A stretch of DNA of 64,000 nt, taken from positions 372,001-436,000 of the forward strand of contig NW_026852123.1 in the NCBI RefSeq assembly GCF_026571515.1, written 5' to 3'. The stretch is from Ruditapes philippinarum. Taxonomy: Eukaryota. Under the pieces are notes generated by a model. That model did no database searches. It was not told where the DNA came from and was given only the letters and a program-made list of their open reading frames with translations. Positions 3,047-56,050 of the stretch are shown here, piece by piece. Within the stretch, counting starts at the first letter, position 1. Every line of letters begins with the position of its first letter. Position numbers and translations under genes: made by a program.

Positions 3047-4078
3047 ATGGGTGAAGTCGATCTAGTGAACCGAGATCCAAATAATATCAACAATCATTTA
3101 ACAGTAAGTTTTCGTCTTATAAAACTGTTAAATATGCTTCTTTTGATTATTTATAACAATACCATTATTTCTTTCTTTCTTGTTTAAAGCAAATTAGAAG
3201 GTTAAACATGACATTAACTTAAACGATTACATTTACTGATAATCAAAGACATAGATTTCAACTAACATAATATTGCCTTTAGTCTTTCAACTTTTACATC
3301 AGTTTCAACAATTTTGATATCATTGCAAGTATCACAATCCTTTGAATATTTATTGTTCATTGTTTTTTGTTTTTTTAAAAAGCATTTTAACTATGTTTTA
3401 TTTTTTAATTTTCTCATCTCGTTATTTTAAGATCTTTTTATTGGTTCAAATATTTTAACAAGAACTGTATGCCATATCTCGACTTCTTATGATAAGCACA
3501 TTATTAATATTACAAGCAAACTTGTATGTTTTTTATATTGTTAAAAATTTGTTTTATCAAATGCCGTCATAAGATAAAGAAAAGTATCTTTAGCTAACCA
3601 TTCTTTCTTTGTTTCTTATAAAGTATCTGCCTTCATGTTTGTATTTTGTTATGTGTTTTATAAATATTATTATTGTTGTTGTTGCCTTTTTGTTCTATTT
3701 CATTTTATTGATTTATTTACTCTTGATATACGACATACTTTTTTTTAACAGTGCCAGTTTGAAGATGTATTGGCCGAGCCTGATGGCACACACAGTATTG
3801 ACTGTGTTTGGAAACTCTCCTACAGCTGTTTCAACCTGTGGAAGAAGATATGCTATATAGTCTTTACCACGTTGTGCGGGATCTGTATTGCTGCTGAGTG
3901 GGGATGCGAATTTGCGGCAGTCTCTTTCTGGCACATCTGGGCATTCACACCTCTCTTCAAGATGTTTGACCTCAACTGTAGTTGTTTGAAGAAACTATGG
4001 GCACAATGTGTCAACTGCTGCGTTGAACCGTGCTGCATGGCTTGCGGAACCGTGTTCCATATGTTCAAGAAAGCTTAA
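3047..4078 (+). CDS. cav: Caveolin-like protein copy 1, 127 aa; exons 3047-3103 and 3752-4078
   Basis: Exon 1 MGEVDLVNRDPNNINNHLT then GTAAGT donor. Acceptor ttttttaacag. Exon 2 CQFEDVLAEPDGTHSIDCVW...CCVEPCCMACGTVFHMFKKA*. Matches the CAV1 DLVNRDP segment and FEDVIAEP signature. An alternative in-frame acceptor lies 6 nt downstream. Confidence 0.93.
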
Positions 4079-8896: not shown

Positions 8897-8925
8897 GTTA
8901 CCAACGAAACATGTACATTATTGAT
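8897..8925. promoter_or_regulatory. 29-bp X-box-like + ATTGAT element upstream of copy 2
   Basis: GTTACCAACGAAACATGTACATTATTGAT, 150 bp from the ATG. Same layout upstream of copies 3-6. Confidence 0.6.
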
Positions 8926-9392
8926 GACGGTGTTGAACTTGTTGGTAGGACCAGATTCTTTTGTCTTCGATACAGACTTGGTGATTTTTCCAATGGCCAT
9001 GAAAACGATAACTTGGCGCTCGCTTAATTGTTATAATATTCAATAGTTTAAGTTTCATATTCATGATAGAATGCCAATATACTTTTTTCTTTCATTATGG
9101 ATAGAGCTTTATTTCCTTGAAGCGGATATTTTTTTCGTTATTTATGTTCATTTTCAGCGTCACCGATACGGCTTCCAATTATTCTGAAATTGTTAGCTTA
9201 TCCCTTTTTATGAGATTTGTTTATCTCTAAAAGCTCGAGCATGCGCAAACAAACACATACATATTCTGGTTAATATTCCTCTGAATTAATAGCTCGGGAC
9301 GGGTAATGTTGATTTTTTAAAATTGTGTTTTTATCTGTATGCAAACAACTTAAACTTTAGCCATAATATATCCACTCTATCAACTATCAAAT

Positions 9393-9470
9393 ACTACAGT
9401 CGAACTGAATTCCCTCGAGGTCGGGTAGCTCGAATACCAGGTTTCGGTCGAACTAAATGTCAGATCCCGT
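9393..9470 (+). mobile_element. Truncated Tc1/pogo-type MITE end
   Basis: TA-CAGTCGAAC terminus followed by CTCGAR-rich subterminal sequence. No partner end found. Confidence 0.35.
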
Positions 9471-11277
9471 ATTATCTCCTTCTTTATATCCTATGTATAA
9501 ATAATATACTTGGAAACAACATACCATTGAAGGAAGTTTTCAGTAAGTTATTTAGACTTAAGGGGCATGGAATGGAGTTATTATATGTTGTTGTATTTTG
9601 TTGTTGTCTTTGTTGTTGGTTTTTTACAAAATTGAGCAAGATAAAGAATAAGAACACTTAACAAGAACAATCATTTATTTCAAGTCCAGTACATGTATTG
9701 TTAGTTATGTTTGAAAATATAATACATGTATATAATGATACAATTCTTTTTTATATACAATGTCCTCTTTTTGAATAATAGATTAATTCACATTGGCAAA
9801 TATTTTGGTATCTATTTAAAAATGATTTCTTTCTTATTGTTATGCAAATAACTGATATATTAAAGAATACAAATTTTCTTTTAAAAAAGTATTTACAGCA
9901 ATGTCGGTTAAAAATATTAAACACAAATGAAATCAAAGTTTTGTAAACAATTGTAAGCTAAATCGATTCTTTATACAGAATGCCTGTAATCAAATTTCTG
10001 CTCAGAAATCAATAAATTTTCATTTAAATTGTTACGTTACGCTTAAATCAAGACAAACATATAGTCAATCAATGCCATAAAATAAGAACGCCAAATCTGA
10101 CAACACACGGCAAAATAGAAATTGCTTAAGTACAAAAATTGAATATATTGACCGTGAAAGACAAAATATTTGCTATGCTTAGATCTCATTTCCTAACATT
10201 TACGTCATTTGTTGTCATTAGAATTACATACTCTAGTTACCTGCCGTGAAATTAATGTTTTTGATCCCATCGATTTCAGAGAAATTTCCGTAAAAAAGTA
10301 ATCATAAAAGCCAAATAATAACAATATAAAGAACTGTGTGACGATAATTATGTATATAAAAATAGAATCTAAAAATAAGAAACCAAAAAGATCGGAAACA
10401 ACCATCGTATCACAGTATTGCTCTATAAAGATTCACACTTAAAGTTTTCATTTATTCACTTCTGAATTTGAAGTTTACAACCTGTACAGTTTTGAAAAGG
10501 TTTAACATATCTCAATGACGGCATTTTTTAAGGCGTCATTTAATATTAGCACTCGACACAAAACAGTACATTTATCACAAAAAAGAGAAAGCCAAAACAT
10601 ACATTGCCACATAGTTTTGCTCGATAAACATTCGCACTTCAGATTTGATTTTATTCGCCTCTAAGCTGGGTATCTTACTGTACATAACTACAAATGTGCC
10701 TAGGTCCCTACATGGACCTTATCTGTCTTATTTGAATTATTAGTTTACCAATTAAATTTACGATTTTTTTCCGGATGAAAATATCTAATTTGTATTTTAA
10801 TTCATTTTTTCCATGAAGAAGATCTTGATTGTGATTAATTGTTTGTGAAAAGGCGGCTGCTTAATTGATTATGAATCTTGTCTTTCTTCAGCTCAGAAAA
10901 TATTTTACAGTTATCACAAATATATACACAAATATATACTTATATATATACACAAATATGTACACAAATATGTACACAAATAGGTACAAAATATTATAAA
11001 AAGGCAACAGCTTTTGTTACTTGTTTAAATATTGCTAAAACATGTTAGAAAAGAAATCTGTTATGGACCAGGTTATCTTTTAAACTGACATACAAGCTTT
11101 TCATTCGTGGTTTTTAAGTGAATTAAAAATCTTTGACAAATAAAAGCATACTGGCTGAGTTTAAACTAAACATTGCACTTGTCATTATTTTCATTGAATG
11201 TATGATATATCCATCAATAAAAATTGATTTCATTAAATGTAAAGGAAAAATTCAACAGTTTCGCTGTAATGGATATT

Positions 11278-12168
11278 CTACTTCTTTTCAAACATATGGA
11301 AAATTTTCCCGCAGGCAAAACAGCATGGTTCGATGCAACATTGGCATATGGTCTCGTGCAATCTCTTGAAAACGCTGCAGTTGATCTGGAACATGTGCAA
11401 ACAAGGTGTGATAAACCATACATGGTAGAAAGCAACCTCTGCAAACTCACATCCCCAACTTGCGGCTATACAAATACCACAACACAGTGTGCTGAGCTTG
11501 TAACATAAACCGAGCCAGCAGTTGAAGCACGTGTATGACAGCTTCCAAACGCAGTCGAAACTGTGAGCATTTTCGGGTTCTCCGAGAACGTCTTCAAAAG
11601 AAACCTGAGATATAAAAATTATAAATATGTAATGTATAGTAAAAATGGCGAAGTAAAAAGATGTTCACAAGTGCCTAAAAGCCATAAATGCTTATGACAT
11701 GACTTTCATGCCCCCACTTGCGAGTATATTTTAGCCCTTGTCCACCCCTCAGTCCCGCTGCTGTGCTGTCCCGCCGTCCGGTTGTCCAACTGTCAGACTG
11801 TCCGTCTATAGACTGACAATACAGTGAATGTTTCGGTCACCCGTGTCCGATGAACACATTTCTAAGTCAATATAAAATTGTACTGTGACAAAACAAACGT
11901 TTACATTGCGGACAGTAAACTGTAGGTAAGGAAGTGCGAAATAAGACATTGTGCAAAATTTATTATTTGAAATGATATATATATAAAATACAATTAATTC
12001 AGGAATCATTGTGATCTGTAGGTCATTCTTTTAAATTAACTGAATGTCTACACTGATAACCCAGGAGTATTTTTTAAACCGCAAAAGGGAAATAAAAAAT
12101 GTTTCACTCACATTATGAGAATGCAAAATGAAACTTGTTGTTTGTTTGTTTGTTTTGTTTTTTTTTTT

Positions 12169-12209
<41 letters not shown>

Positions 12210-13208
12210 GGGGGGGTGTTTCGTTTTTATTGTATTCCATATATTCATTCCATTTTGTCTGTAAGTATATTAAAACTTTAATGTTCTGAACACCGAAGCT
12301 TTAACAGTATAGTAAAGTATTACAATATCAATACCAGTGATAAAACATTACATTGCAATTTCAATAGCACAATGTAACAATCACTTTTATTTGCTATCTG
12401 TTGATGTAAATTGATTTTAGAATCAATACACTATTCCGGATAAATAATTAAGTCATTTATATTAAAGCACATGGATTTAAAACAGTTACGCTTTGGTATG
12501 TTGAAAATTGAGAAGTTAAATCTTTCAACAAAATATTGTGAAAATAAAATGTTCAACAAAAAAACGTGATTAATATCTTCAAAATATTTTTACAATTTGT
12601 GGAGAGATCTATTTATACGTAATGCTCAGTCTAACATTGAAAACATTTGGTCTTATAAAAAATTCTGGAAACAAAGTGATCCCTCGGAAGCATTAATGAC
12701 AACAAAATAACATAAGAATTGCAGACTCGGTTTGATTGAGTCTGTACATGAGAGATAACGAATAAGTGCAACATCCCTTTCGCCCCCTAGCACCGGCTTG
12801 AGCGGTACTCAATTCTCAACGCTTAATAGTGTTGACATCAAAGGTTATTTGAAAAAAATTTAAATAAAAAAAGACAAATAAATTCAATAAAAAATCTTAT
12901 ATAAAGAAAAAAAAATTTTGTTCTTGTTTTGATTTTTCTGTCGGGATGTCAATTCCCTAGTGTGTCAAATTATTTCTACAAATGTTTTGTAAAAGCTAAT
13001 TATTCAAGACGTAACACCGCTTTTCTATGACACAAAACTGCAAAACCTGTTGTAGCGGTTGATAATTTTTAGGACACTATTTATAATGTTTCTGATAAAA
13101 TGTAACAAAGACTTCAATCAAATAATAAAAAACATATATTCAAAAGCATTTTACCTTAAGTGACCCATTAATGTCGTTTGGATCTCGGTTTACTAAATCC
13201 ACTGTCAT
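11278..13208 (-). CDS. cav: Caveolin-like protein copy 3, 126 aa; exons 13208-13155 and 11604-11278
   Basis: Exon 1 MTVDLVNRDPNDINGSLK|GTAAA. Exon 2 translated by hand (absent from the ORF track): VSFEDVLGEPENAHSFDCVWKLSYTCFNCWLGLCYKLSTLCCGICIAASWGCEFAEVAFYHVWFITPCLHMFQINCSVFKRLHETICQCCIEPCCFACGKIFHMFEKK*. Confidence 0.93.
12137..12217. repeat. (TTTG)n / poly-T tract followed by a G run
   Basis: Directly visible; lies in the intron of copy 3. Confidence 0.9.
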
Positions 13209-13326
13209 TTCAGTCGTTCAATTCTTTACTTTCTTATTGCGAATGAACCACTTTCAAAAAGGCAACCTCTGGCGTCAGCAACACTTTAAAAATGATGTTG
13301 ATCAGCGTAATGCATAACAAACACCT

Positions 13327-13355
13327 GTTACCAAAGTGATAGGTAAATTATTGAT
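13327..13355. promoter_or_regulatory. 29-bp X-box-like + ATTGAT element upstream of copy 3
   Basis: GTTACCAAAGTGATAGGTAAATTATTGAT, 119 bp from the ATG. Confidence 0.55.
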
Positions 13356-15099
13356 GGAGATGGCTTATAAGAGATTCTAGCGTGACTAGTGTCTAAGTGT
13401 GAACAGCACTAACAGCGTTCATGCTTGCTTGGTCATTCAAATAGATATTGCCTATATTCTTATTTCGTTACAAGCCCTTTAAAGTTGATTTAATTGCGTA
13501 ATTGATTACTTTGAAAATCCATTACAAAGATCATCAAGAGCATATTTTAAACGAATATGTTACGTGTCGACTGCAAATCACAGATAGATAAACCTTTCTT
13601 TATCTGCACACCGTCACAGCTATTACTTTTGATATAGGTATTACATTAAATCATTATCTGAGCAATTACACATTTATATGCCTGAATATATTAAAGAATG
13701 AACCAAAATTTCGAATTCGGTTTCTCACACACCCCTCTGAATTCGATTCCTTAAGAACATTTTCAAGACAGCTTAAGCAGATGTACGTTTTTAAATCAAA
13801 CTGGTAATTTTTGCATAAGACTAGATGTAATCATAATTGTTAAATAATAACTGGTTAAAGTATTTATCCCCTTAAATACATGAAGACTTCATCCTTTCAT
13901 ATTCTCTTTAATATCCCCTCCCTTTTTAATTCAACTCTGCCTTTAATTGCATCTTTCAGTGTTCACGTGTAAATTTTATATTGTGGTTTCAATATGTTTG
14001 CTGCCGTAGCTAGTATCACCTTACCTGCTTATTGCTTTGCTCGTCTTTCTCGTTTATTGCTTTATTTCTGTTTGGTGCACTACCTTGTGCTTTTCCGTGG
14101 TCGTTTGGGCATAGATGCTGTAAGTGGCGGGGATCTGCATTCCATGATAGTCTTTGTTCGTTCTTGATCTTTGTCTTTATAAGTTTGACAAACCGCAATG
14201 TTTAATACTACCTTCGTTTAGTGACTGTCATTTAGTTAGTATAATTTTATGAGAAATTTGTTTATCCACTTTTTGTTAGGCCGACTTTTAGTTGTTATTA
14301 AGGAGATTTAGATACAAAATAAAAAGAGAATATACCTATGATATCTTCTTTCAATATCATTTAAGGTAATTATTAATATAAAGAATATATAAAAAAAGAA
14401 GTGATTTAAAAACTTAAATGAAATTGTTTGAAATCTTACTTTTCGTCTATCATTTTATCGAATAACTGTTTATTGTATAACAGTCTGTTTATGTCAAATC
14501 ATCGAAAAATATATAAAAAATGAAATTTATTGTGATATTATGTTCTTTTTCACGCTTAACATAAAATGTTCATAACATGCTGCTATATCTTGCTAACAGT
14601 GAAAGTTTCAATCAAATCACTTGATTGATCAAAATTGATCAAAATCAAAACACATCAACTCTCAATGCTACACGAATTATCTTGATTATATAACATAATC
14701 TTGTATACAGATGTTTTGTATCATAGTACGGATTGGATAAAACTATTGCGTTTCTTGAATTCGTCAATATCTATTGAATCTTCATACCATTTTATAAGAA
14801 TGATACATATCAATTTAAGATATTTCCGAAGGGGTCAACTGACAACAACAATTGTTTAAATGTTATGTACCACTTGTTAAAGTGGCTGATTGAATATAGA
14901 TTGCAAGGGAGTTACATTGAATGTCAGAAGTTCGGCATTATGCCACATCAAAATGAGTTTGCAATTTTCACATTAATATTTTCGTTTACATTTCACTATA
15001 TCCCCTTTTCCGAAGTTTGTTTGTATTTGTTAATTATGCTTATCATAATTACTCAAATTATAAAACTTAACAAAAACTTTCGAAAACGAAGATGATTAA

Positions 15100-15260
15100 T
15101 GTCAGATTGCTGCATGACAACGCGTCATCGCACTTGGCGTCTGTAGTGCAAAACTTCCTGATACAGAAAAAGATGTTGTGCTGCCCCGTCCTTCGTATTC
15201 ACCTGACCTTGTCTTTTGGGAATTCCTTTTTGTTTTCAAAGCTAAAAAATACCTTTCAGA
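15100..15260 (+). pseudogene. Mariner (DD34D) transposase remnant, frameshifted
   Basis: LLHDNASSH in one frame, VVLPRPSYSPDL in a shifted frame, then FLFSKLK. These are the mariner HDNA..H, YSPDL and FLF..LK motifs in the expected order. Confidence 0.8.
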
Positions 15261-16371
15261 CTAAACTTTTGTTCAGCGCAAATAGTTCGGGTCACGTGGG
15301 TAGATTTTACAGTCGCCAGCAGACTAACGGTTATTCTTTCAAAAAACCTATATCAGTGGACGGGGTAGATAGGAAAACATTTACTTGGTCTTGAAACTAG
15401 AAATAGTACTAACATTTCGGCCAATAAGTAAGAAAACCGTAGGACACTTTATTGCAAATATCTCCTTATAAACATTCTCGGAATCTGATGAAAGAACGAT
15501 CGACGAGCTTCTCTAAATAAATGGAGTAGATTCATTTTTGGAAATTTTGGGTACAAATATTTGTAACAAATTATGTCAAATAATATCAAATTGAGAAGAA
15601 TACTATAAATGTTATGTAAGTTTCTTTTCAAAGTCGTATTTCAAAACAGTTTACCCTTAAATGAGCATTGCTTTCGGTAGTGTTTTTGTGTTTACCCTCC
15701 AAATACATTATTTTGTTTTCAAAATGTTTCTTACTAGTCTCTTAACAAGAATAAATTAAGAAGTTGGCGTAGGAAACAAAAGAAACATATCTTATTTATA
15801 TCCGTATTTTAGAGCTTTCCGCGAGAAGTTTGCAAATAGTGTGCAAAAATTTGTAAAACAATCACTTTAATCTAAAATCATACAATACGTTACGTTGCTT
15901 TTCATTTTATCAACAATGTTAAAATTGTACTTACACAATACAATCGCAAAAGGTTAGTAAATGAGAATTTGTTGCAAACACATAAAAGCTTGGAAAAGCT
16001 TAATAATGCCTGTTTCAAATAGATATCACCTTCAAGCCGAGACTGCACAACGTTTGGTGTGTTTTTAAGGATTCCGTTTTACTTTATTTATATCTTTGTA
16101 ACGTTGTGTTGTTTTAGCCGACTTTTTTGTACAGTGTTATTTGGAAATAAGAAGGGACAATAATTGGCACTGCAAAAACTGTTGGCCAACCCATTTTCTT
16201 GTCTTTGCTATATTGTCCTTTATACATATATGTTTTGCAATAAAGTTTGTTACTTTAATCAGCTGCTGTATGATGGTACATCTCGACAATTGTATCTGTA
16301 TTGACAATAAAAGTATTTGCATCTTTATCGAATTATATTCTTTGGACACATTGCCAGAGGTTGTCAATGTA

Positions 16372-16590
16372 AAACGTGGCCGGGTGGTTAACGCGCCGGA
16401 CTAGTATACTAATGATTGCAAGCTGCATGGGTTCAAACTCCTTCAGGGGCAAGGCGTTTATTTTTTTAGCGAATACCTTTACACTCGTTGCTCTGCACTG
16501 GTTGGTTCCATGAACGGATTCGAAAGTGTGTCTATTAGCTTATAGCTTCCAACACAATCGAATTGAAATAAATATTTATAACCAAAACGT
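16372..16590 (+). mobile_element. tRNA-derived SINE (family A; central domain possibly Meta-type)
   Basis: A box TGGCCGGGTGG, B box GGTTCAAACTCC, body ACTGGTTGGTTCCATGAACGGATTCGA, A-rich tail. Four copies in the window. The domain assignment is from memory and unverified. Confidence 0.72.
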
Positions 16591-17058
16591 GAACGAAATG
16601 AGAATATCTATTTATTTGACTTCAGGAATTTGAAAATGTAGAATATATTTTGCAAAAATACAACGTTTAAAAAAAAATACAAACGTTTTGATAGAAAGTG
16701 CTCTCTTTTTTACAAAAACGCAAACAACAAGAGCATCTATACCTGCAAAAATGTAAATGATCAAAGCTTTCTATTGATATATCATAAATGATTTGGAATA
16801 AATATAGTACTGTATAGTTTTTCTTGAGCAATCATATCAATGGATTACCTAAACGTTTAAAAATTAAGCTTGAAGTTTCGTCAAACAAAATTAAGCATGA
16901 GTAGTGCTATACTATTGAAGCCATTCTTGTCGCTAAATAAAATATTTACAATTTTATGGTTTAATGGTTAAATATTTGTATTGAAAAAAATGCAAATAAA
17001 AGGGGTGAGGTTAATAAAAGAAATAAATATTGGACGGATAAGATAGGTTGTTGTTTAA

Positions 17059-17372
17059 AGCAACGCGCCTTCAGATGATGTTTTTATATTTGAATTTTTA
17101 ACAAAGAAATATCATTACATGTAAAAGATAGTCTTTATACAATTTATCATAACAGCCATTATCTTTTTAAAAATGCTTTCACCGCGATACAAACACACAT
17201 TTATTTAGCTATTTTGCATATTTCAACATAAATTACGTAACTGATGTACTTTGCTGGTGCCTGATGCTAGTTGAAAATACCCTTTGGTTAACTGGGTAAA
17301 ATAATTTTAGTGTTATTTTCATGCACTTTCTAAATGTTTATGAAACTAATTTCAATCTAGAGGCGTGCTACT
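17059..17372. mobile_element. Kolobok-like MITE with TTAA TSD
   Basis: TTAA|AGCAACGCGCCTTCAGAT ... ATCTAGAGGCGTGCTACT|TTAA, imperfect TIRs. Related ends near 27310, 45224 and 51990. Confidence 0.55.
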
Positions 17373-18229
17373 TTAAACTCTATCACAGTTTTGCTTATTG
17401 CTCCTACAAAACTCTCTCAACTGACATAACAAATGGTTTGTATGAATCAACCGTCTTCATTGATATTACATAGCGTCATATACCATCTTGATCTAGCATT
17501 ACCTAGTGTCAAACAAGGTGACGATTGTCATCGCTCAAATAATGTCTTGCATGACCGAGTTGTTTACTTATATGTGTGCTTACATCGAAATCTCCCAATG
17601 ATGTCACAATGTGGATAAATCCTTCCTTGTCAGATGGAACAATGTTCTTGTTGTAACAAATAATCACTCTCAACTTGCATAATTAAAATTTTTTTGTAAT
17701 CTTTTGACAACCCTAATAGTTTTCACCATTCATTTTCGATAATGATATTAGTTCTCACGCAAATTTCTCAATTAATGAAAATACACATTTAATGCCACCA
17801 AATTTACACAATGTTGATTCGTTTCTTAACATAACTTCAAAGGCGTTGATAGTTTTGTCCACATTTATATGTAGTATTTGTCCAGCATTCTATACAATCC
17901 ATATGTGCATGTACATGTATTTACAAATGCTAAGAATATGTACAAAGAGACGTAACAAATATACAGTCTGTGAAAGAAACACCCGATTTTAAATTGTTCA
18001 TTAGTGATATGAATAGAAACAGTCGTCTTTTAGATGAATTGTTTAGAAGGAGGTCGTGTTATACTAGTAGTTGCCCTCATTAGAGTATGAAATGTAAAGT
18101 TGTTGGGCAATCTGTATTACTGTGCACTATTATGTTTTTGCAAATCGTGCACACATTTCAGAAGAAAATAGTTTGAATACGCATCATAGAAAAGAGAAAG
18201 AATTTGACACTTCAAGTGTCATGAATTCT

Positions 18230-20104
18230 TTACTTCTTTTCAAACATATGGAAAATTTTCCCGCAGGCGAAACAGCATGGTTCTATGCAACATTGGCATA
18301 TGGTCTCGTGCAATCTCTTGAAAACACTGCAGTTGATCTGGAACATGTGCAAACAAGGTGTGATAAACCATACATGGTAGAAAGCGACCTCTGCGAACTC
18401 ACATCCCCAACTTGCTGCTATACAAATACCACAGCACAGTGTGCTAAGCTTGTAACATAAACCGAGCCAAAGGTTGAAGCACGTGTATGACAGCTTCCAT
18501 ACGCAATCAATACTGTGAGCATTTTCGGGTTCTCCTATAACATCTTCAAAACAGACCTGGAATAAATCAGACGTATTAGTGAAAAATATTCATTTTATTG
18601 CAATGATGCAATGGCATGTTTTGGAACCACAATAACAATTTGATAATTTTAATTTTGCGCAGCCGATAACATAAAGAATAACGTTTTCTGCATTGGACTG
18701 ATGATTTTGTGTAATGTATTTGTCCTCTTTGAATTTGGAACAGTACTTTCAAAGTAAGAGGATTTTAATAGCAAAATGCAAAACCAAAGTTTTAAACAGA
18801 ATCGTGTATGGTCAGATTGCGCGGATGCACTGACTTGCCTTGCCATTGGTGACAAAACTAATCACTTTTGGTTGATAGGTTAAGAGTTATTTACTTCGAC
18901 TGTTGAATGTGTCGCCCTTCGATTCATAAAAACACATCTGTCTGAATATGAACATCAAAATATAATGCTAGTGTTGATGTCTTATGCATGTTCATGTATC
19001 ACTAAAACTAGTCGCGATATCACTAATATCTTGAATCTTAAGAATAGTAACTTACTAATTTATTGTTTCTTTCTTAGAAGATATTTACGTCATCTAATAA
19101 TTTTAGAGTGCGCAATATAAAACATGTATCCATTTTTAAAAAACATTTAGGAACCATATAAACATTTGTTGACCATGTTTCATTAGTTTCAGTAATTCAT
19201 TTGCTTATTTTGAATTGACTTATTGCGCATTTTACTTCCAGAAATTAGAGTTATCACGTTAGAAATATAGTCTTTATGCGGATATTTCCGTGAGCTTTCG
19301 GCAATATAGATATATTCTTTTGATTGAGCTTTATGAAGAAAGTTGTTCATTCAAGATATATTTACATTAAAAAGAGATTTGTTTTATGTCTTGAATGCTT
19401 AATGTAAATGTACCTTTTTGTAACATTTACATCTGTTCTGCAGAATATAAAATCCAAGCCTGCAGAACGAGGAATTCAATACATTCCGAGGATTTCTGCA
19501 GATATAAATTCAAGGGGAAAGGTGCATTAGTGCTATTCTTGCATAAACATATTTTCTTCGTTTATGTACAAACTTGCATGCGAATTTTCATGAAAGATTA
19601 AAATTTTTTTAGTTTGTAACAATTAGAATATAACAAACAAAATCATTCAAAGAAAATTTTGTCGCAATTGTTTATATGACAAGTGTGTGTGCGTTGTGAT
19701 AACTTTTGAACATTTATTTTTGTTGCTGTGGTAACAAAATTTTATTTTTTGAATTTTAAAAATTAAAAAAAAAAAAAAAATCTAAATCTTGTTTGCTTTT
19801 GCTTGTTTCGGCATTATTTGATTATGAAGATTGAATGTTCATAAGGTTTTTTATGTTTAAAAAAGCGAATTATTTCTTTTATTTATTCATTCATATTTTA
19901 ATTATATATATTTATCTTGATTATTTTAATTTAAACATTATTTTATTTAGATATTTATGAACGCATCTTTGTTACCTTTACTTAGGAGATTTGATTGTTC
20001 TGGAAAAAAACTCAAGAGATATCATTCCTTAATTAAAAAAAAGTGTTAACCTTTAATCCTGCATTAAGATCATTGGGATCTCTCTGTTCTAAATCCACTG
20101 CCAT
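18230..20104 (-). CDS. cav: Caveolin-like protein copy 4, 126 aa; exons 20104-20051 and 18556-18230
   Basis: Exon 1 MAVDLEQRDPNDLNAGLK|GTTAAC. Exon 2 VCFEDVIGEPENAHSIDCVWKLSYTCFNLW...GKIFHMFEKK*, open, 327 nt. Confidence 0.92.
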
Positions 20105-20253
20105 TTCTGTTAGTGCCTCAAATTAAATTCCAAACAATTTTTATCACAGGGAAAAAAAGAACGGACCCAACCGTCGGTGTTGAGTGTACTTCAGAAACTG
20201 ATGCCGAGAATGTTGTTTAGTAAACAGTAACAGTAGTTCTAGGTAAATAACCA

Positions 20254-20282
20254 GTTTCCAAAGATACAGTTTAATTATTGAT
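20254..20282. promoter_or_regulatory. 29-bp X-box-like + ATTGAT element upstream of copy 4
   Basis: GTTTCCAAAGATACAGTTTAATTATTGAT, 150 bp from the ATG. Confidence 0.6.
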
Positions 20283-20459
20283 GACTAGAGATTCTAGCGT
20301 GACAAGTTCTAATGTGTGAACAACGTTCATGCTTGTTTGGTCATACAGGTAGATAAAATACAAGTAGTTATTGCCTAGTTTATTGCCGCGACATTTTAAA
20401 ATTTACAATTATTTGAGCTATTGATCTGTATGGGAACGACTTAATATGATTGATATCGA

Positions 20460-20830
20460 TTAACATCATCATGATAATCGTTTCCATCATTTGTTTTTTA
20501 CTTTTATTTACCATTTACATCATTTTCACAACATTAACTTCTACATTATTATCAGAGTCATCATTATCATCGTCGTCATCTTTTACATCGATATGATATT
20601 ATCATCGTCGTCATCCTCTACATCGATATTATCATCATCATCGTCGTCGTCGTCGTAGTAGTAGTCACTACCATGAGCAACACCAGAATCATTATCATAA
20701 TTCCTACCATCACCATCATCATCATCATCACTTTAACATCCATCTGTATCATTATCAGAAACTTCTCCTTATTCATCATCGTTGCCATCGTAAAGGTTGC
20801 CGTCGTCATCGTCATCAAGATAACAATCAA
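20460..20830. repeat. Degenerate (ATC/GTC)n trinucleotide region
   Basis: Runs of CATCAT/CGTCGT; explains the spurious Met-rich ORF. Confidence 0.85.
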
Positions 20831-22090
20831 CAGAAGTCGCCTGTTTTATTAATATTCTTCCACAATGTTATGTGTTGTTGTTATTCTTTTTGCACATATC
20901 TAGCTGTGTTTTATGAAGAAAATATCATTTTTAATGTCAAGGTACAAAACAAATATTGAAGACTTGCGATATAAAAACCATTTGGGTGTATATATGACTC
21001 CAGTGTAGCATTTTAGCCAAATTCGTTAATTTCCGTAATATAACTAATTTACAACCCTTTGAGTGGATCAGAGTCAAAGCGACGCATAAAACATTTTTGT
21101 ATAATCGAAACAGCGATAAAATATTTCGAATTATAACGAACTTAAAACAGAATCGAGCGTGGACTTAATATTGTACATATTTTCATTGGTTACAATAGAA
21201 ATAACACGTAAAACACCAAAAACAAACAACTCTCAAACTAATTTATTATCTATATAAACGTTCAATCTGATACACATAATAGAATTAATCATAAAAAAGA
21301 AAAAAGAAAACCAAAATGCAAATTTGGAACATCTGCGTACATCAATAGATACCAATAAAGATGAAAAAGTCAAATAAACAAACATTTTATACTGAACAGT
21401 GAAACGATCAAGATGTGTTCGTTATATCCGAGTTTGCCTAACTATTATAATCAGTAGTATGTTATAGTATACAAGTTGTCTTTGTTTTGTGTAGTAAATC
21501 GATATGTACGATTAATCCAGGATTCGACACATCCGTGTCATTTTATTGCGATCATCGTGTTATAATAATATTTATCAGAATCATATTTCTCGCAATAAAC
21601 ACTTAATATTGTACATGTTCAATTTAAAAAGTTCTATAAAAAAAAATAGAGAATTGATGATATCAAAATTTACCAAATAAATACTGGTATCCAAAAAAAA
21701 AAACAATAAGTAATAACATGTTACGCGTACTGTCTAACTAAAAGAACAAGAGGCTATGAATTTGAGTAAATTCAAATACATGTACATGTATGTTGCATGT
21801 AAATATGGACGGATAGGATAAGAGTCAATGTGTATATAATATCACAGTACTGGCCTATTTATTTATAGACTATAATAATCTTAAACATATATTTTAAACA
21901 TTCATTTAACATAGTTGTTATTAATACATAATATTATATCAAACAATAAGTAACATTCACAACATTTGGACTAACTCTTTTCACATATAAAACGAAAAAA
22001 AAATCTAAGGTGAGTTGGTATTAAAACACGACCTTGTAACAAATGATCAGTTCGTAAAAAGATTAAGAAATCTGCATTCATTGCTACTGC

Positions 22091-25000
22091 TCAATTTTTC
22101 CCCAAATGCTTGAAAACGGTTCCGAACGCTTCACAGCATGGCTCAAGACAACATCCACAGATGGTTTCATGAATTTTCTTCAGTACGGAACAGTTGATCT
22201 CTAGCATGCGGAGAAATGGGGTTATGAACCAAATATGGTAAAACGCTGTCTCGGCAAACTCACACGCCCACTCGGCAGCGATACAGATGCCAAAGCAAAG
22301 GGTACTGATTTTGTATGTGAGGCCCAGCCAGCACGTAAAGCACGTGTATGATAATTTCCAGACACAGTCTAAACTATGAACGCCGTCAGGTTCTGCTAAA
22401 ACATCCTCAAAAGCAACCTGAAAATAAAAAAAAAGTTATACTTTATAGTGTTTCAATAAAAAATCTATGCAGCCAAAAGTTTTCGACACCATTATCATTA
22501 TCATAATGATTAACAACAACATCATTATTATCAACATTATTATTCCTTATGATGAATACAATATTCCATGCAGTCAATGATTAGCACTTTTCATCATCAT
22601 CATTATCATCATTAACATCATCGTCATTATCAACAACAATAATAATTATCAACAGCAATAATAATATAATCATCAACAACATTTTATATTTTCATAATGA
22701 ATAAAATGTTCCATACAATCAATAGAATGTAGTTTTTATCATCATCGTCATCATTAGCATCATCATCATCAACATAAATAACATTATCATCATCAACAAC
22801 AACATCATCATCTCCATCATCAACAACAACAACATTATCATCATCAATAACAACAACAACATTGTCATTCTTTATAATTATTTAAATGTTGCGTGCAGTC
22901 ATAGTAACCAGTTTTCATCATCATTATTATCATCATAATCATCAGCAGGAGCATCATCATTATCATCAACATCATCATCATCGTATTCATCAAAAACAAC
23001 AACAACATAATTATTGCTACTAAGACTAACATCGTTATTGAAGCATATCTGAATATATACATTGCTGAAGCCAATTATATTTATAGAGTTTGACATATAT
23101 CAACAAAATGATTCAGCATTAATATGTGTTCATGCATTCAATAATTCTTCGTTTATCTAATATATAATTATCTAATTCTGTCATATTAATGATAGTATAT
23201 TGTTAAAACACCGACCTCTTTTAAGGTCAATAATAACTTATGCAAGCAGCTTAAGTGAAAACCAATAACTTATAGGAAAACATGTATTACTATCGTCGCA
23301 CGGGACGATTCGTGCTTATCTTAATTGCCTATCTCTGTGAATGTACGTGAAACTCGTGCAATATTAATGAGGTTTTTCCTCTTTACCTAGCTACATTGTA
23401 AACAAAGGTAAACATTGTAAACAATGCGTCCCCAGAGCCTGGTAAAATTCAATACGCGTTACTTTTACAACTTTCTCTCGTTTTACATAGCCTATTTGGG
23501 AAAAGAGTATTACTTTTTAAGTTCAACTGAACATTTCCGACCATGTTTTAATGACCATGTAGTAAAAGTTGCTAGTAAATGGCAGATATTGATTTAGTCT
23601 GTAATGAACTAAATTTAAGAAAACGATAAGTTCTGTCTCTTTTTGCAAATGATACAGTATATCATGAAAAAGTTTTCATTATACCCCTTAGATTATGCGG
23701 CATGGCAGTGTAATATAATATGATTACGAATTAAATAAGGTAAAAATCAAACTCGTAATGTTTTTATCTTAAAAAGCAATAATGGCAAAAGCTATCATAT
23801 CTATTTTATTTGAGATTAATCCTTTACATTTCTTGTAGAATGGCAAGAACTATCCTTTACATTTTATTTTTCGAATGACCAATGAAATTCCCAGATTTCA
23901 ATTTGTAATTTAAAATGACAAATGAAACTTCTTCTTAAAAAATGATTTTAGATGGCCTACGGCTAAAAAAATCCTTCATACAAATTGCATTTATAAAAAT
24001 ATGAATATTCAGAATAAATGGCAAACAATATCATACTTAAGTCCGATGAATTATTGATCTATCGATCCTATCAAACTTTTATATATAGTTAATGATGGTA
24101 TATTGTCAATAGCTCAAAATATTTTATATCTTGGAAATTGCGATACCAAACATGCGTTCTGGTTAGGTTTCGATGTTAAAGTATCATGTTACAATCGATG
24201 ACATGGCACAGTTTTGTTTTCAACTATACCAGATAGATTGGAGAATCAATAATTTGTTAGCAGAACGCGTGTTTACTTGATGACGCTTATCATTAACGGT
24301 TAGTTCTAATAAAAAAACCTTTATAATTTAAAAAACGTTATATTTAATTGCGTAAAATGGTTATTTTCGATTAAATGTCCATTATGCCCCAGAATGCTTT
24401 CATTTTCATTTCTCGTAAGCTTTTTATTTTTGTGCCAATGTTATAGTTATTATATTTGCCCTTTTCTAAAGGGTGAAAAAAAATCAATTCTAAGGCATAA
24501 TGTTCCTTTTTTGGATACCAAAAGGTACGGAAGAGTATACTGACCCCCCTTATATATTTTATATGCCTGTTTAAAATACGACGATACATGATAACAACAT
24601 TGTTCGTCATGGTTTTTTAAAAGTTATATATATATAGTTCATATTGATCTTTTCTGTTTTTTGGCTACTATACTGTTAAAAAAACGTATTATAAACTTAA
24701 GTCTTTCTTAAGACCTTACTTTTATTTATAATAAATATGTTTTTTCTTCTTTTCATTGAAATTCTACCTCAAGAAGCAGACGTTTTCTTCGAGTAAACGC
24801 TTTTATTTATTTGAAAACAGTATGTTTTCGAGGCATTATTTGTTTGACAGATATAGAGATGATATAATCATATATAATATATATATTCTTAACCTGAGTT
24901 TTTAGCTTAGATGATGTTTTATATGTTTCGTAAAATAAGTTGATCGTTATGATAACACGCTTGCGGTACACGAGTATTATATAAAAGATTATAATTTGTC

Positions 25001-26327
25001 TGATATATATTATAATTATATAAATGGTATTAAAACTTTGAGTAACTTATACTATAAATATTTCTTACACCTTTTTCAATAATTATACATGTTGTTTTTA
25101 TATCAAAACGAGAAAAGGGCCATTTAATATTACAATAATAGATGATACCAAGAGAATCTAATTTAATTTATAAATTCATACATCTTTTTTCATGAGAATT
25201 ATATGATAAAGGCTAAATTGTACAACTTCTGTATGTTAAGAAGAACGTTCTGTTCTCTTAAATTTCCAAATATCATCGAAGAAACAATGCATATTTGTGA
25301 TTTATGGTGTATAATAACAGATAAAACTCTGCAAGATCTACTTTAGATATCATATAACTTGTCATTTTTTAAAGATATGTATTATACAAAGGTTTTTTTT
25401 CTTGAAGGCATAAAAAATATATAAGGGGGTCAGTATACTCTTCCGTAAAAAGATATTTCGAACAATCATTAAGACTATGTTATCTTCACCTTATTGCTCT
25501 TTTAGTTTTAATGTTTCTAAAATAAGCAAGTTAATTCAAATTATCCACAGTCTTCATAATAATGAAACTGTCTGCCTTGTGTTTTAAGGTAAATCCAAAG
25601 ATAAATTTACTATTTTGGAGGTACATTAACGTTTAGAAATGAATATATTGTTTTCTTCTTTAGAAAGTGCAAATATGCGTTTTATACTCTTTTGATAATT
25701 TATTTAGATAATTTTGGCGGGTAAGAAGCGCTGAATGTACAACAATTCGTCATAAAAGTAGTCATATGTAAATAAGTATTATTTTGACTTCCATACAAAA
25801 AAAAACAAAATTACGATATCTTTACTAAAATTCAAAAATGAAAAAAAAAACAAAAGATGGTTCGGCTATATGATCAATAGGTAACATTTTTGGAAAGTGT
25901 TAAGGACACCAAAAATAAGAAGAAAGTTATTGTGAAATAACTGCAATGTCATATTTTTGGCTTTGAAAACTTTGTTTTTCAATATAAGATAGAAAATTTT
26001 CTTTTTTCTTCTCAAAACGAGTAGTGTATCTATTCATTATAATTTCTAAATAAGTACATTTTTCTAAAATATATATATAACAGAAAAATATATAATTCAA
26101 TAATGTATTCTTCCTTACGACTAAAAATTGAAATGTTTCTTAAATTCTAACACATTCTATGATATTTTTTGAAAAACTATAATATAAAAGTGTAATGACT
26201 GCTGCTTTTTTTCAATGATAATGATAAAAATTGTACATGCATGTCGAAATTAAAAAACTGCAGGATTTACCTTTAAATGATCGTTAATGTTGTTTGGATC
26301 CCTGTTAACAACGTCCACTGTGTCCAT
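22091..26327 (-). CDS. cav: Caveolin-like protein copy 5, 127 aa; exons 26327-26271 and 22417-22091
   Basis: Exon 1 MDTVDVVNRDPNNINDHLK|GTAAAT. Exon 2 VAFEDVLAEPDGVHSLDCVWKLSYTCFTCWLGLTYKISTLCFGICIAAEWACEFAETAFYHIWFITPFLRMLEINCSVLKKIHETICGCCLEPCCEAFGTVFKHLGKN*. Intron 3853 nt. Confidence 0.92.
22490..23010. repeat. Degenerate (ATC/AAC)n trinucleotide region in the intron of copy 5
   Basis: Runs of CATCAT/CAACAA. Confidence 0.85.
23785..23960. repeat. Short ~33-bp degenerate tandem repeat, related to 34480-34645
   Basis: ACTATCCTTTACATTTTATTT...AATG[AG]C units at both loci. Confidence 0.6.
24526..25447. mobile_element. Non-autonomous TIR element, 922 bp, TAC..GTA ends (IS3EU-like)
   Basis: TIR TACGGAAGAGTATACTGACCCCCTTATATATTTT at both ends. 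Flanks AAAAGG/AAAAGA (5 of 6 TSD match). Confidence 0.75.
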
Positions 26328-26449
26328 TTTGGTTAACTTAACAAAACTGACCAAGTACTACAGAAAAAGTGGAACCTTTGGGAGTGACCGGATAAATGCC
26401 GTACTTCATATGTAACGGCTGATATTAATTCGGAAGTTGTTATTACCCG

Positions 26450-26478
26450 GTTACCAAAGAAACGGTTGAATAATTGAT
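26450..26478. promoter_or_regulatory. 29-bp X-box-like + ATTGAT element upstream of copy 5
   Basis: GTTACCAAAGAAACGGTTGAATAATTGAT, 123 bp from the ATG. Confidence 0.6.
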
Positions 26479-26784
26479 ATGCTGCCGATCTGGCGGTCAT
26501 TCAGGATGGACATTGTCATTGTTTTCATTGTAAGAAACTGGGATACTGACCAATCAGGATATCGATATTCATTATGTAACACTGAAATATGTCCTCATGT
26601 TTACAGACTTTCGTTACCTTGCAACGATAAATCTGTAATTGGTAATTTTATTAGAAATGTACTTTTCCACAAGTGACAAAAACGTATATACATGTAATTT
26701 TATGTGTTAGTTAGTCCTTTCAGCTCATAAACAGACCACCTTAGTCTATTGTACGAAATAGTATTTGGGAAAAATTGATGTTTT

Positions 26785-26919
26785 NNNNNNNNNNNNNNNN
26801 NNNNNNNNNNNNNNNNNNNNNNNNNNNNNNNNNNNNNNNNNNNNNNNNNNNNNNNNNNNNNNNNNNNNNNNNNNNNNNNNNNNNNNNNNNNNNNNNNNNN
26901 NNNNNNNNNNNNNNNNNNN
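26785..26919. other. Assembly gap (135 N)
   Basis: Run of n. Confidence 0.99.
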
Positions 26920-27744
26920 AAGCTTATAAACGGACCGCCTTATTCAGTATTTATTTATGGTACAGAATAGTATTTGGGAATTATTGGTGGTTTTTGTTTC
27001 CAGATGAGCCAAAATATTTAAAGAAAATCAATATTGAGAAAAATGTACTAAAATTTTAAGAAAGGTAAAAATCATTCAAGATCCAAGTTATGTTTTACAT
27101 GTTATGTGCGATTTACGACTTATTTTGCAGTATTTTATCACCATATTTCTACTGCGTTACTAACGCAGTAAGGGCTGTTTTTGCATATGTTGACCACGTT
27201 TTAGTAATTTTCTTGTATTGTAAGTGCCGATTAATTATTTTATTTCTTCATCTCACAATATATTACTTTTAAATCAATTTCTAAAATTTTCATGGAAATT
27301 AACATGAATATGGAGACGTGCTGCTTTAAACATAGATGTATTTATTTTGTTATTTTCACCATGACCGTTTAATGATCGTTTCCCTTGTTACAAGTATTGA
27401 TTATAGCATAGAAACAAAAGATAAACAATCCTGGGACATGAGAAAACAATTGCAGCGTTAGATGACATCACGTGATAACAGATTGTACTTATATTCCTGT
27501 ATTGGCAGCTTTTCGAACAATATACAAGGCATGAATATTTAACTTGAAGGCGGTTTAATTTACAACACCTGAATTATCTGGTTATTTCCGCCTCGCTCGG
27601 CGCCTGAATTCATTCGCTTCTTAGTTAACATCGCGCATGAATTAAATAAAATGAAAATGTTTACTTTTTTATGTTCTCTTTTGTTAAAGTTTTGTCACGT
27701 TGTACATTGTATCAATAAATATTTATTAAAAGAAAACAATGTGT

Positions 27745-28000
27745 GATGATATAACCAGATAGTTAACGCGTCGTACTGATAATCTAAAGATTGCTGGTCG
27801 CGTATGTTCAAACCCCGTAAGGGGCAAGCCGTCGTTTCCGTGAGCTAGAAACCTTACACTGATTGCTTAGTACTGGTTGGTTTCAGTATCGGATTCGAGA
27901 GTGTTTTAACAAGAAACTGTTTCATTGAACTGTGTTTCAATAATAACTATTTTAAGAAATAGCTTCCAACAATGTAAAATAAATAAGTATAAACTAAAAG
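27745..28000 (+). mobile_element. tRNA-derived SINE (family A)
   Basis: GTTAACGCG..., GTTCAAACCCC, TTGCTTAGTACTGGTTGGTTTCAG..CGGATTCGAGAGTG, AGCTTCCAACA. Confidence 0.7.
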
Positions 28001-28039
28001 AAAACAATCGACTAGAGTATAATTATTTCTTAAAAGGAC

Positions 28040-28140
28040 CGGTGGTTGCTCACTGCTGTGGGTTCGAGTTCCTTAGGGGACTTTGGATTATTTTTATGTA
28101 AGAATGCTTTCCACCAAGATCGTGGAAACTCGGTGATCCT
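28040..28140 (+). mobile_element. Fragment of a different tRNA-derived SINE head
   Basis: CTGTGGGTTCGAGTTCC B box followed by GGGACTTTGGATT. Confidence 0.4.
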
Positions 28141-28523
28141 TAACAAAGTTAATGAAAATTGATATACTGCAATTTCTTTAAAAAAGGACCAACTTTACTT
28201 TACCCGAAGTAGGGATTGCAGATTCCCATACATAGTTTATTTATTCTTTTATTACAATTAGACATATTCAGTAATAATTTCAAAAATTTCTATAAATTTT
28301 TCTGCCATTAAAATATTTTACTCAAGGATGAGCAAAGTACATGCATCTTTAAACAAATCCGTCAAAAAGGTTATATTTGAAACGCCACCAATATGTCTAT
28401 AAACATTACATATATATTTACAAAGAAAGTCTTTGGTTCAAAGAATGTCCATAAAAACATTGATTTAAAGGTAGAAAAACGTGCGTGGTTTCCTAGCAAC
28501 AGCGCATGTCCCTTGACAAAGTT

Positions 28524-31205
28524 CTAACGCTTCTCGAACGCTGAAAATATTTTCCCACATGCTAAACAGCACGGCTCCAGACAGCAGGCACATATCGTCT
28601 GATGACACTTCTTGAAAACCTCGCAGTTGATTTCCATCAACCGCAATGAAGGTGTTATAAACCAGATATGGTAGAAGGCAACTTCGGCGAACTCGCACGC
28701 CCATTCGGCGGCCAAGCAAATACCACAGCACAGTGTGCTGAGCTTGTAACACACGCCAAGCCAGAAGTTGAAGCACGAGAACGACAGCTTCCACACGCAG
28801 TCAATACTACGAACACCGTCAGGTTCCGCGAGAATATCTTCAAAGGCAACCTGTAAATGAAAGAGACCTTCTCTATTATATGTATTATCATAACACTTAA
28901 GTTGTTAAAGACAAGACATACAATTACAAAAAAAAAAACAAGTTGAACTCAGGATTTGCCCCTTTAACTTATTTTTTTTTTCGCACTTTATAAAATGTTT
29001 TCCAAATACTGCGTTTGCAGCGTTTGTTCCAATAGAATTTTTTTTAATTCCCTTGTAACAAAACATCGAAAACAAAGTGTGCTCTAGCTAGCTTGTTTTT
29101 TTTTTTTTCGACACCGTTAAAAATCCAAATCAAATCCATATTGTATCCCATCAAGCCTCGTTTTCGTTCTCCGGGTCTAAAAGATCCTTATAAAATCTAT
29201 ATAGTTCTCAAAGAACTAAAGTTCTGTGAAAATGTTAAAAATTGGTGGTGTGAAATGATGAAAACATTATACTAGTACATTGTTTAATACAAAACTGTTT
29301 CTATTGGACTCGTACACAGGTGCTAAAAATCTATATTGGACGTCGTACTTTAAAGGTTTGACGGCTGTTTTCTCGTCCAATTGAATTAAGTATTGAACTC
29401 AACAATGTATATTCATTTCACAATATTACAAATGTCGAATTAAATCGTATGTAGGTTGTTTATGGAAATAAAATGTATCTGTGTTCAACATCTTTTCCTT
29501 GTGTGTACATTGGTCAATATATTTTTAATGACATACAAAATATTCTTTATACACGTTGAATATTTTTAACTCAACTTTTTATCGTAATTGACTTCTTTGA
29601 AAGAGGCTGTTTTTATATTCGTTTTTTTTTCCTTTTTTATTAATAATTGTCCTGGATTCATACAAATAGACGGGTACACTAATCGATTAAAAACTCATCA
29701 TTGGTAAAAAGGTAAGAGAATTTCTACAAAGAGCGTATCCTAGTTATGTTTAAGTACAACATCCTGGAAATGTCGTCTGCATGAACAACGCTGAATATGT
29801 ATTGGAAAATCATTAACGAAAGAAAAAAATAAAGGCAAAAGATAATTAGTAGATGGGATGGGCAGTTATCCTTAGAATTGAACTTCCTGCAGTGGTAACT
29901 TCCCTTGTTCAGTACAAAACAGCTTCAAACTTTGCTTGATTAGCTTAGAAAGATATACTATTTCAATTTCATTGTATAGCAAGCTTCATTTAGGCACCGT
30001 TCGATTATCTCAATAGGTAGAGCGTTTGACTGTGAATCGGGCGATCCGGGTTCGATTCCCGGACGGTGCAGGTCACTTTCGTTGTGATTGATCATGAAAT
30101 CCTTTCTACGGTCATTCGCAATGTATATCTGCTCTGGCATGTAAAGAAGTTATCAGTTCTTTGCGAAAGTGAAGGCAACTAGTTCAGGAACGATGCGGTG
30201 GCTGAACTATGCTCTGGTTAATTCAATGTGTCTTTCTGCCACGATCGATCCGGAGTGAAAACTACCAACACCACCGCCAAGTACTTCATTCACAACTTAA
30301 TCGCAGTTGGGCTAGATTCTTGTGCCTGCTATAGGCTCAGTCGTGGCGAGTGTTCAACATAAATGAGAATTTGAATAGAAATGAATATACAAAATAGAAT
30401 ATGGATATTTAAATAAAAAACACAGAATTTGCTTTGTATGTATAAATAAATAGACAAGGAAAGCTAATAAACATGTACAAATGATAAAACAAGCACAGAA
30501 ATATGTATGTATGATAATCTAGACAAAACAAATTTAAAAATATGTATGTTTAATTGACTAGACTAAGCAAAGAGATATGAATATATCAGTGACTTGACGA
30601 GACAAACAAAGAAATGTGTATGTATAAATGACTTGATGGAACATGCACAGAAATATGTATGTATAAATGACTTGACGGGACAAGCACGTATGTATAAATG
30701 ACTTGACAAGACAAGCATAGAGATTTGTATGTATAAATGACTAGGCAAAACAAGCATAGAGATTTGTATTTATAAATGACTGGACAAAACAAGCATATAG
30801 ATTTGTATGTATAAATGACAAAAACAAGCATAGAGATTTGTATGTATAAATGACAAAAACAAGCATAGAGATTTGTATGTATAAATGACTAGACAAAACA
30901 AGCATAGATATTTGTACATGTATGTTTAAATGACAAGAACAAGCATAGAGATTTGTATGTATAAATGACTACACAAAACAAGCATAGAGATGTGTATGTA
31001 TAAATGACTAGACAAAACAAGCATAGAAATTTGTATGTATAAATGACTAGACAAAACAAGCATAGAGATTTATACATGACTTGAGAGAACAAACATAGAA
31101 ATATGTACATACATGTATATGTATAAATGACACAGGTAATATACAAACCTTTAAGTGGTCGTTCAGATTATTCGGATCTCTGTTCATTAAGTCAAGATCC
31201 GACAT
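28524..31205 (-). CDS. cav: Caveolin-like protein copy 6, 127 aa; exons 31205-31149 and 28850-28524
   Basis: Exon 1 MSDLDLMNRDPNNLNDHLK|GTTTGT. Acceptor tttacag. Exon 2 VAFEDILAEPDGVRSIDCVW...GKIFSAFEKR*. Confidence 0.92.
29994..30278 (+). mobile_element. tRNA-derived SINE (family B) with a tRNA-His(GTG)-like head, in the intron of copy 6
   Basis: Cloverleaf-like 29994-30070: GCACCGT/ACGGTGC stem, CTGTGAA loop, CCGGG-TTCGATT-CCCGG arm. Followed by a body shared with 538-760. Confidence 0.7.
30425..31132. repeat. 39-bp minisatellite abutting the exon-1 donor of copy 6
   Basis: Unit ATGACTAGACAAAACAAGCATAGAGATTTGTATGTATAA, roughly 18 copies, more degenerate toward the left. Confidence 0.9.
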
Positions 31206-31346
31206 TGTTGATTATAATCAAGTCCAACTATGAAATGAAATAAATACCAGAATTTTAACAAATCGTGAAAATCACTAATAAAAGCAGACGTACGTTGGCG
31301 ATATGAAGTTGACAATAAAATATAATATTTTTTGTGTTTGTACCCG

Positions 31347-31375
31347 GTTTCCACCGAGACTCGTAAATAATTGAT
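31347..31375. promoter_or_regulatory. 29-bp X-box-like + ATTGAT element upstream of copy 6
   Basis: GTTTCCACCGAGACTCGTAAATAATTGAT, 142 bp from the ATG. Confidence 0.6.
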
Positions 31376-42012: not shown

Positions 42013-42131
42013 GATTAATTAGTTAAAGCTGAGGAAAGACTCCAGATAGAAGTGTAAGGACCAAAGTCTGGAAGAGGTTTGATTCGGACTCGTTGTTGGT
42101 CAGTTATTTATTGCCTGTCCATTCTTAATGC

Positions 42132-42145
42132 GTAACCACGGACAC
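42132..42145. promoter_or_regulatory. X-box-like 14-mer upstream of copy 7
   Basis: GTAACCACGGACAC, 120 bp from the ATG. Confidence 0.45.
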
Positions 42146-46229: not shown

Positions 46230-46243
46230 GTGTCCGTGGATAC
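46230..46243. promoter_or_regulatory. X-box-like 14-mer upstream of copy 8
   Basis: GTGTCCGTGGATAC (reverse complement GTATCCACGGACAC), 121 bp from the ATG. Confidence 0.45.
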
Positions 46244-56036: not shown

Positions 56037-56050
56037 GTGTCCGTGGATAC
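56037..56050. promoter_or_regulatory. X-box-like 14-mer upstream of copy 9
   Basis: GTGTCCGTGGATAC, 121 bp from the ATG. Confidence 0.45.

Follow-up and report, generated by a model that had tools for sequence, protein, structure and literature searches.

Why do five of the nine caveolin genes in one array of the clam Ruditapes philippinarum carry the same 29-bp sequence upstream of their start codons, and which proteins might read it? The window, that is, the whole stretch of 64,000 nt analysed here (contig NW_026852123.1, positions 372,001 to 436,000, forward strand), contains nine intact two-exon caveolin genes, named A-I, at 3047-57592; their introns follow the GT-AG rule, their open frames encode 125-127 aa, and the caveolin domain PF01146 was detected in all nine second exons at 81-108 bits (Pfam, cut-off 25). 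Within the window the element is carried by clade B-F only. On balance, our analysis favours a two-site module before this one clade, in which an RFX dimer on an X-box and a POU class III/IV factor would drive the genes together, probably in ciliated cells.

An earlier note on this DNA had described five exact copies of a bipartite pattern, and scanning both strands of the window returned all of them, at 8897, 13327, 20254, 26450 and 31347. No further match was found on the + strand of the 64 kb with up to four mismatches allowed, and the - strand gave a single match, with four mismatches. At three or fewer mismatches a near-identical, post hoc pattern gave five matches compared to a mean of 0.66 in shuffled sequences, none of 100 shuffles reaching five. 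Because the pattern had been written from the same five copies, non-circular tests were used. In a leave-one-out analysis, in which a matrix was built without one copy and the held-out copy was ranked among 127,944 window positions, the copies of B, C, E and F ranked first and that of D second, behind C; held-out copies scored 27-31 bits and the next site at most 11.7 bits. The promoters of B, D, E and F also have in common a gapless 29-column block with 19 invariant columns; control sets reached 9-12 after shuffling (40 sets) and 9-13 with real sequence drawn at random (40 sets). The distance from element to ATG is 149 (B), 118 (C), 149 (D), 122 (E) and 141 (F) bases, equivalent to the 119-150 bp given before. 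The shared orientation upstream of the genes also held, with the qualification that the genes lie on the - strand and the motif as originally written is the antisense strand. The 29-bp motif is real, and it is very probably a functional DNA element.

The five element-bearing genes are B (7056..8747, coding exons 8747-8691 and 7382-7056, 127 aa, with a GT-AG intron and PF01146), C (11278..13208, coding exons 13208-13155 and 11604-11278, 126 aa), D (18230..20104, coding exons 20104-20051 and 18556-18230, 126 aa), E (22091..26327, coding exons 26327-26271 and 22417-22091, 127 aa) and F (28524..31205, coding exons 31205-31149 and 28850-28524, 127 aa), all on the - strand; the proteins of E (P0001) and F (P0003) are identical to caveolin-1-like records of R. 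philippinarum. B-F form one group among the window caveolins (ultrafast bootstrap 95, codons), and in the protein tree they fall in a 97/95 clade together with P0002 and the genes of four related loci, L001, L002, L003 and L004. Genes A (3047..4078, +), G (40486..42012, -), H (46364..47777, +) and I (56171..57592, +) belong to other clades, and the composite element was absent from their promoters when the window was searched with the clam-trained matrix. The array thus comprises three old clades (A, B-F and G-I), each of which has counterparts in other bivalves, indicating that the three-clade split is older than the species. An N gap of 135 bases lies at 26785-26919, about 300 bp upstream of the element of E.

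The element had been presented as common to five divergent paralogs. Five carriers were indeed found; C and D, though, are recent duplicates (synonymous substitutions per site, dS, 0.38), and the paralogs number nine in all, with A, G, H and I lacking the element. As 126 bp of the C and D promoters can also be aligned at 72%, the copies count as four independent ones rather than five. Synonymous sites among B, C/D, E and F are near or at saturation (proportion of synonymous differences 0.71-0.89), whereas 17 of the 29 element columns are invariant across all five copies, and in the four-copy independent sets 17-19 of 29 element columns are invariant compared to 4-9 of 200 flank columns. With C/D as the only pair short of this saturation, the element has likely been maintained by selection, including both sites and the gap between them. 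We infer that the ancestral gene of B-F carried the element and that tandem duplication copied it. As for the proposed co-regulated battery, B-F are paralogs to which tandem duplication likely passed on one promoter, rather than a set of unrelated genes. Separately, a block immediately upstream of the element is conserved between C (13356-13440) and D (20283-20350), its position shifted by an indel of 10 bp, roughly one turn of the helix.

Read on the gene strand, the element consists of a 13-bp left site, a 2-bp gap and a 14-bp X-box-like site, with the consensus ATCAATWATKHA-N3-RT-N2-C-KK-TGGWAAC. Twenty seeds from SELEX (systematic evolution of ligands by exponential enrichment), taken from the supplement of PMC12119339, were scored against it. 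The best-fitting of the 20 were RFX seeds, at gene-strand positions 16-29, with 8-10 of 12 positions matched. The X-box-like 14-mers lie on the - strand at 8897..8910 (B, 10/12 to the RFX3 seed), 13327..13340 (C, 8/12), 20254..20267 (D, 9/12), 26450..26463 (E, 10/12) and 31347..31360 (F, 9/12). The degenerate X-box consensus, a 14-bp imperfect palindrome of the form RYYNYY-N1-3-RRNRAC (PMC2375033), is fully matched in two of the five, C and E (in E on both strands), with one mismatch in B (to RYYNYY-NN-RRNRAC), D and F; full matches also occur in 23% of background windows. In the same source, conservation of an X-box was predictive and its mere presence was not (70% vs 23%). The sites lie at -132 to -163 from the ATG in B-F and at -133/-134 in G, H and I, each of which has a lone X-box-like site in its promoter (p 0.01-0.02): at 42132..42145 on the - strand for G (-133, p 0.010-0.012, degenerate consensus not fully matched), and, by the RFX3 seed, at 46230..46243 (+) for H and 56037..56050 (+) for I, both at -134.

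Support from outside the clam came from a metagenome scan, in which 17 related loci (L001-L017) were found and 12 promoters cut, or 11 with the L002 pair counted once. Omitted from this set were L009 and L015-L017 (intronless, no promoter), L004, L005 and L014 (first exon not found), L010 (only about 110 bp upstream), the L013 copy of an L007 gene and, for each combined p, one of the two L002 promoters. Within -250 to -60 of the 11 other-animal caveolin promoters, the RFX3 seed reached p<=0.05 in four (Fisher p 0.002 vs 291 local windows); against dinucleotide shuffles three of the 11 stood out (p 0.005), and none of 60 scrambled seeds did as well. The CUX, POU3F4, POU4F3, FOX and GRHL seeds alone showed no enrichment in these 11 promoters (Fisher p 0.78-1.0). 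A TATA-like motif follows the X-box site within 20 bp in L006, L007, L008 and L012 and within 25 bp in B; the layout suggests that the element sits just upstream of the transcription start site. The resemblance of the first 14 nt to an X-box, pointed out in the earlier note, was supported by the RFX3 seed and by RFX enrichment in independent caveolin promoters, and to a lesser degree by the degenerate consensus; the right half is probably bound by RFX.

The left sites, placed by seed fit on the - strand, lie at 8913..8925 (B), 13343..13355 (C), 20270..20282 (D), 26466..26478 (E) and 31363..31375 (F), that of E matching the POU3F4 seed at 10/10 and the CUX core at 6/6. The earlier suggestion of an Onecut site failed: the ONECUT seed AAAATCRATAW is matched at only 8/11 in all five copies, its A-rich 5' flank being replaced by GTC, TCC, GTC, CAT and ATG, and both the CUX core and POU seeds fit better. 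The CUX core ATCRAT is the best-scoring left seed, with 6/6 in all five copies. Conservation extends beyond ATCAAT, however, to invariant A8, T9 and A12, and the whole site is a 13-bp near-palindrome with a central W, in the shape of POU III/IV seeds (POU3F4 9-10/10, POU4F3 8-9/10; seed alone significant only in E, p 0.046). The POU seeds account for A8, T9 and A12, and the CUX core does not. PBX (ATCAATCA), a factor of the ciliary band, was also considered; all five copies have W at position 7. Overall, we would put a POU-class partner at about even chances, with a Cut/CUX protein a weaker candidate and a factor of some other class weaker still.

The left sites of relatives bear on the same choice, as they keep POU-type positions and not ATCAAT. 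At L001 2917-2945, L002 928-957 and L002 2713-2742, ATWCATTATTCAT is followed after 2-3 bp by an X-box; these three promoters, which we assign to the clade of B-F, retain A1, T2, A5, T6, A8, T9 and A12 but not C3, and the CUX core is not kept. Unaltered POU4F1 and RFX3 seeds together gave p 0.010 for L001 and 0.006 and 0.021 for the L002 pair vs 631 windows, and the degenerate X-box consensus is fully matched by both L002 X-boxes and, on inspection, by that of L001. As for the 29-mer itself, its one three-mismatch match in the 17 related loci lies inside an L002 intron (4084) and was taken as chance; the top three matches of the clam-trained matrix across these loci are non-promoter sites. L002 also contains two caveolin first exons (1120-1177 and 2875-2931) with near-identical promoters (FOX-like, X-box, POU-like, X-box) and one second exon, which could reflect the use of alternative promoters, an incomplete duplication or a collapse in the assembly.

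In the mechanism proposed for B-F, an RFX dimer would occupy the 14-bp X-box and a POU-class (III/IV) homeodomain factor the 13-bp left site 2 bp away; the constant gap would be due to the two proteins touching each other or keeping a set helical phase. Side by side upstream of the start site, the two factors would act as an AND gate for this clade, and G, H and I would instead use a lone X-box within a different conserved promoter. A ciliated setting is made plausible by reports on caveolins of other species, in which caveolin is described as a ciliary-band or prototroch gene of spiralians (PMC9524096, PMC10380512, PMC12551290) and of a flatworm larva (PMC10396302), the animals being a bivalve, annelids and a flatworm; a preprint also defines the motile-cilia coregulon of an annelid by Rfx1/2/3 and FoxJ. 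The FOX sites noted on inspection around B, C, D and F do not exceed the background level. By analogy with these animals, the balance leans slightly towards joint expression of B-F in ciliated cells.

A number of observations weigh against this reading. Of 334 background windows, 77 also contain a full degenerate X-box; PMC2375033 cautions that RFX control does not follow from an X-box alone; and a significant X-box was not found in seven of the 11 other-animal caveolin promoters. On the left site, POU seeds do not require the C of ATCAAT, which does not vary among the clam copies, and the POU-IV core ATWATTWAT is missed at one position in all five copies. In the relatives, two of nine out-of-clade promoters also score (p 0.008 and 0.021), mainly via the X-box; the gap is 3 bp in L002, and the L001 site lies at -276; the first exons L001 3214 and L002 1144 were assigned to the clade by neighbourhood only. 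Because the cross-species composite was first spotted by eye, with a post hoc model, and a search with the clam-trained matrix picks up the L002 promoters (p 0.01) but not L001 (p 0.23), it is a lead that favours POU over Cut without proving it. In E and F, acceptor-like AG sites a short way upstream of the ATG leave room for a non-coding exon farther upstream. In the oyster, caveolins are among the top markers of two non-ciliated clusters, Un3 and Neu4, and of one hemocyte cluster; RFX6 is a marker of a foxA+ cluster; pou4 is restricted to posterior neurons; and the trochophore lacks pou3.

Two rival accounts keep RFX. If RFX were paired with a Cut/CUX-class protein, the left site would amount to the ATCAAT core, and the element would be related to the human CUX1-RFX5 composite but with wider spacing. 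The perfect core in all five copies and the existence of same-orientation CUX1-RFX5 composites in consecutive affinity-purification SELEX (CAP-SELEX) speak for this; yet the CAP-SELEX gap to RGYAAC is 9-10 bp and here it is 17, the ONECUT flank is absent, A8, T9 and A12 are left unexplained, in-clade relatives have ATACAT/ATTCAT, and the CUX core reached p<=0.05 in none of the 11 other-animal promoters, so that we regard the pairing as unlikely. Somewhat less likely again is an RFX module active in non-ciliated or non-motile cells, such as gut/endocrine cells via RFX4/6, sensory neurons or hemocytes. The oyster markers just cited (RFX6 in the foxA+ cluster, caveolins in Un3, Neu4 and hemocytes, neuronal pou4) and the lack of FOX enrichment in caveolin promoters agree with it, and it is opposed by the reported expression of other species' caveolins in the prototroch or ciliary bands of the bivalve, annelids and flatworm.

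Three further accounts were weighed. A Grainyhead/CP2-type factor of an epithelial promoter might chiefly read the right half through AAC(C/A/T)GG(G/T)T at gene-strand 27-34, overlapping the X-box end: G31 is invariant, G32 occurs in four of five copies, CCGGGTA is common to E and F, and the seed AACCGGTT gave p 0.013 for E and F and 0.056 for D. Such a factor, which we consider very improbable as the main reader, would leave positions 16-26 unexplained; the match is poor in B and C (p 0.25), shows no enrichment in other animals and is missing from the L001/L002 copies. The Grainyhead-like octamer at the X-box end in D, E and F may instead represent a third, additional site. An RNA element in a long 5' untranslated region, with ATCAAT and TTGGT pairing in a hairpin, was rejected as a still slighter prospect: a 6-bp stem can be drawn in B, but the fold, at -2 to -8 kcal/mol, differs in each copy, 62.5% of cells are paired and no covarying two-sided change was found in six pairs. 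Least credible of all is that the element is neutral, left behind by duplication, gene conversion or the end of a transposon. In favour, C and D duplicated recently and conversion is possible in tandem arrays; against this stand saturated synonymous sites, sharp element borders, the lack of a further copy in the 64 kb and the lack of overlap with tandem repeats.

Among other features of the window, G, H and I share a different conserved promoter of 290 bp (42013-42312, 46064-46363 and 55871-56170) with TCATTGTCCA, GATTGYCC, ACARGTTTCTACCTA, X-box and GGCAATAAA, of which the TCATTGTCCA and GATTGYCC blocks are presumably Sox-like; an acceptor-like AG stands 16 nt before the ATG in these promoters. 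An ATCAAT/TGGAAAC pair about 960 bp before G and H was rejected as a further element, having another spacing and not being common to I. Pairs of inverted tandem arrays with 21-bp and 22-bp units, at 59318-60461 and 49894-51611, look like foldback-type transposon ends, and 208-bp inverted repeats at 53059-53266 and 55428-55635, 95% complementary and 2161 bp apart, likely represent a non-autonomous DNA transposon. An 82-bp satellite of 16.4 copies with 85% matches occupies 35217-36553.

Mollusc promoters are barely mapped, and four independent copies in saturated surroundings provide a natural footprint, resolving site boundaries and spacing at the level of single bases. If the proposed binding is true, the caveolins would be direct RFX targets, which would account for the frequent choice of caveolins to mark ciliary bands in larvae of spiralians, and from the partner site one could learn how the paralogs within an array came to be divided among cell types; with Cut as the partner, or with non-ciliated cells, the element would be part of an ordinary conserved promoter of a gene family. 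More speculatively, an undescribed RFX-POU-IV composite, with a 2-3 bp gap across several bivalve lineages, might single out the genes of this caveolin subfamily as effectors in mechanosensory cells that are ciliated, unlike the sister caveolins with a lone X-box, and the 29-mer might serve as a 30-bp cell-type code for finding and labelling such mollusc cells.

How does the element compare with known systems? In the S-X-Y module of major histocompatibility complex class II genes, an RFX site stands at a strict distance from partner sites and is repeated across a paralog family; the clam element has no CCAAT/Y box or cyclic-AMP response element, and the genes are unrelated. With the ciliary X-box promoters of RFX/DAF-19 (PMC2375033) it shares, in full in two copies and to within one mismatch in three, a 14-bp imperfect palindrome close upstream of the ATG whose place is conserved across related genes, and it differs in the fixed 2-bp gap to a second, 13-bp site and in the caveolin targets. 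The CUX1-RFX5 composite, RATCRAT-N9/10-RGYAAC in the supplement of PMC12119339, likewise has ATCRAT upstream of an RFX site in the same orientation, but in the clam ATCRAT stands 17 bp from the RGYAAC-type half, outside the 9-10 bp range, and 9 bp from the edge of the full X-box, and the leading R occurs in one of five clam copies. Compared with POU III/IV sites (TGMATWWWTNA, TNAATWATGCA and the Nematostella POU-IV core ATWATTWAT, PMC8846589), the left site is similar in its 13-bp near-palindromic form, the central W and conserved T2, A5, T6, A8, T9 and A12, but has a fixed G where the POU-IV core has W and largely lacks the GC of ATGC(A). The CAP-SELEX supplement of PMC12119339 includes RFX5-OTP and RFX5-HOXA2 composites; no RFX-POU pair was present among the first 30 of 167 RFX places in its composite table, and its columns gave no POU-RFX match, matching across columns being uncertain. 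In literature coverage that excludes most subscription papers, no relevant paper was found on X-box, caveolin and RFX together, nor any description of the element or of an RFX-POU pair in work on RFX, onecut, POU, caveolin and ciliated or mechanosensory cells. An RFX site with a spaced partner is a known kind of arrangement, of which the particular composite predicted in the clam appears to be a new member.

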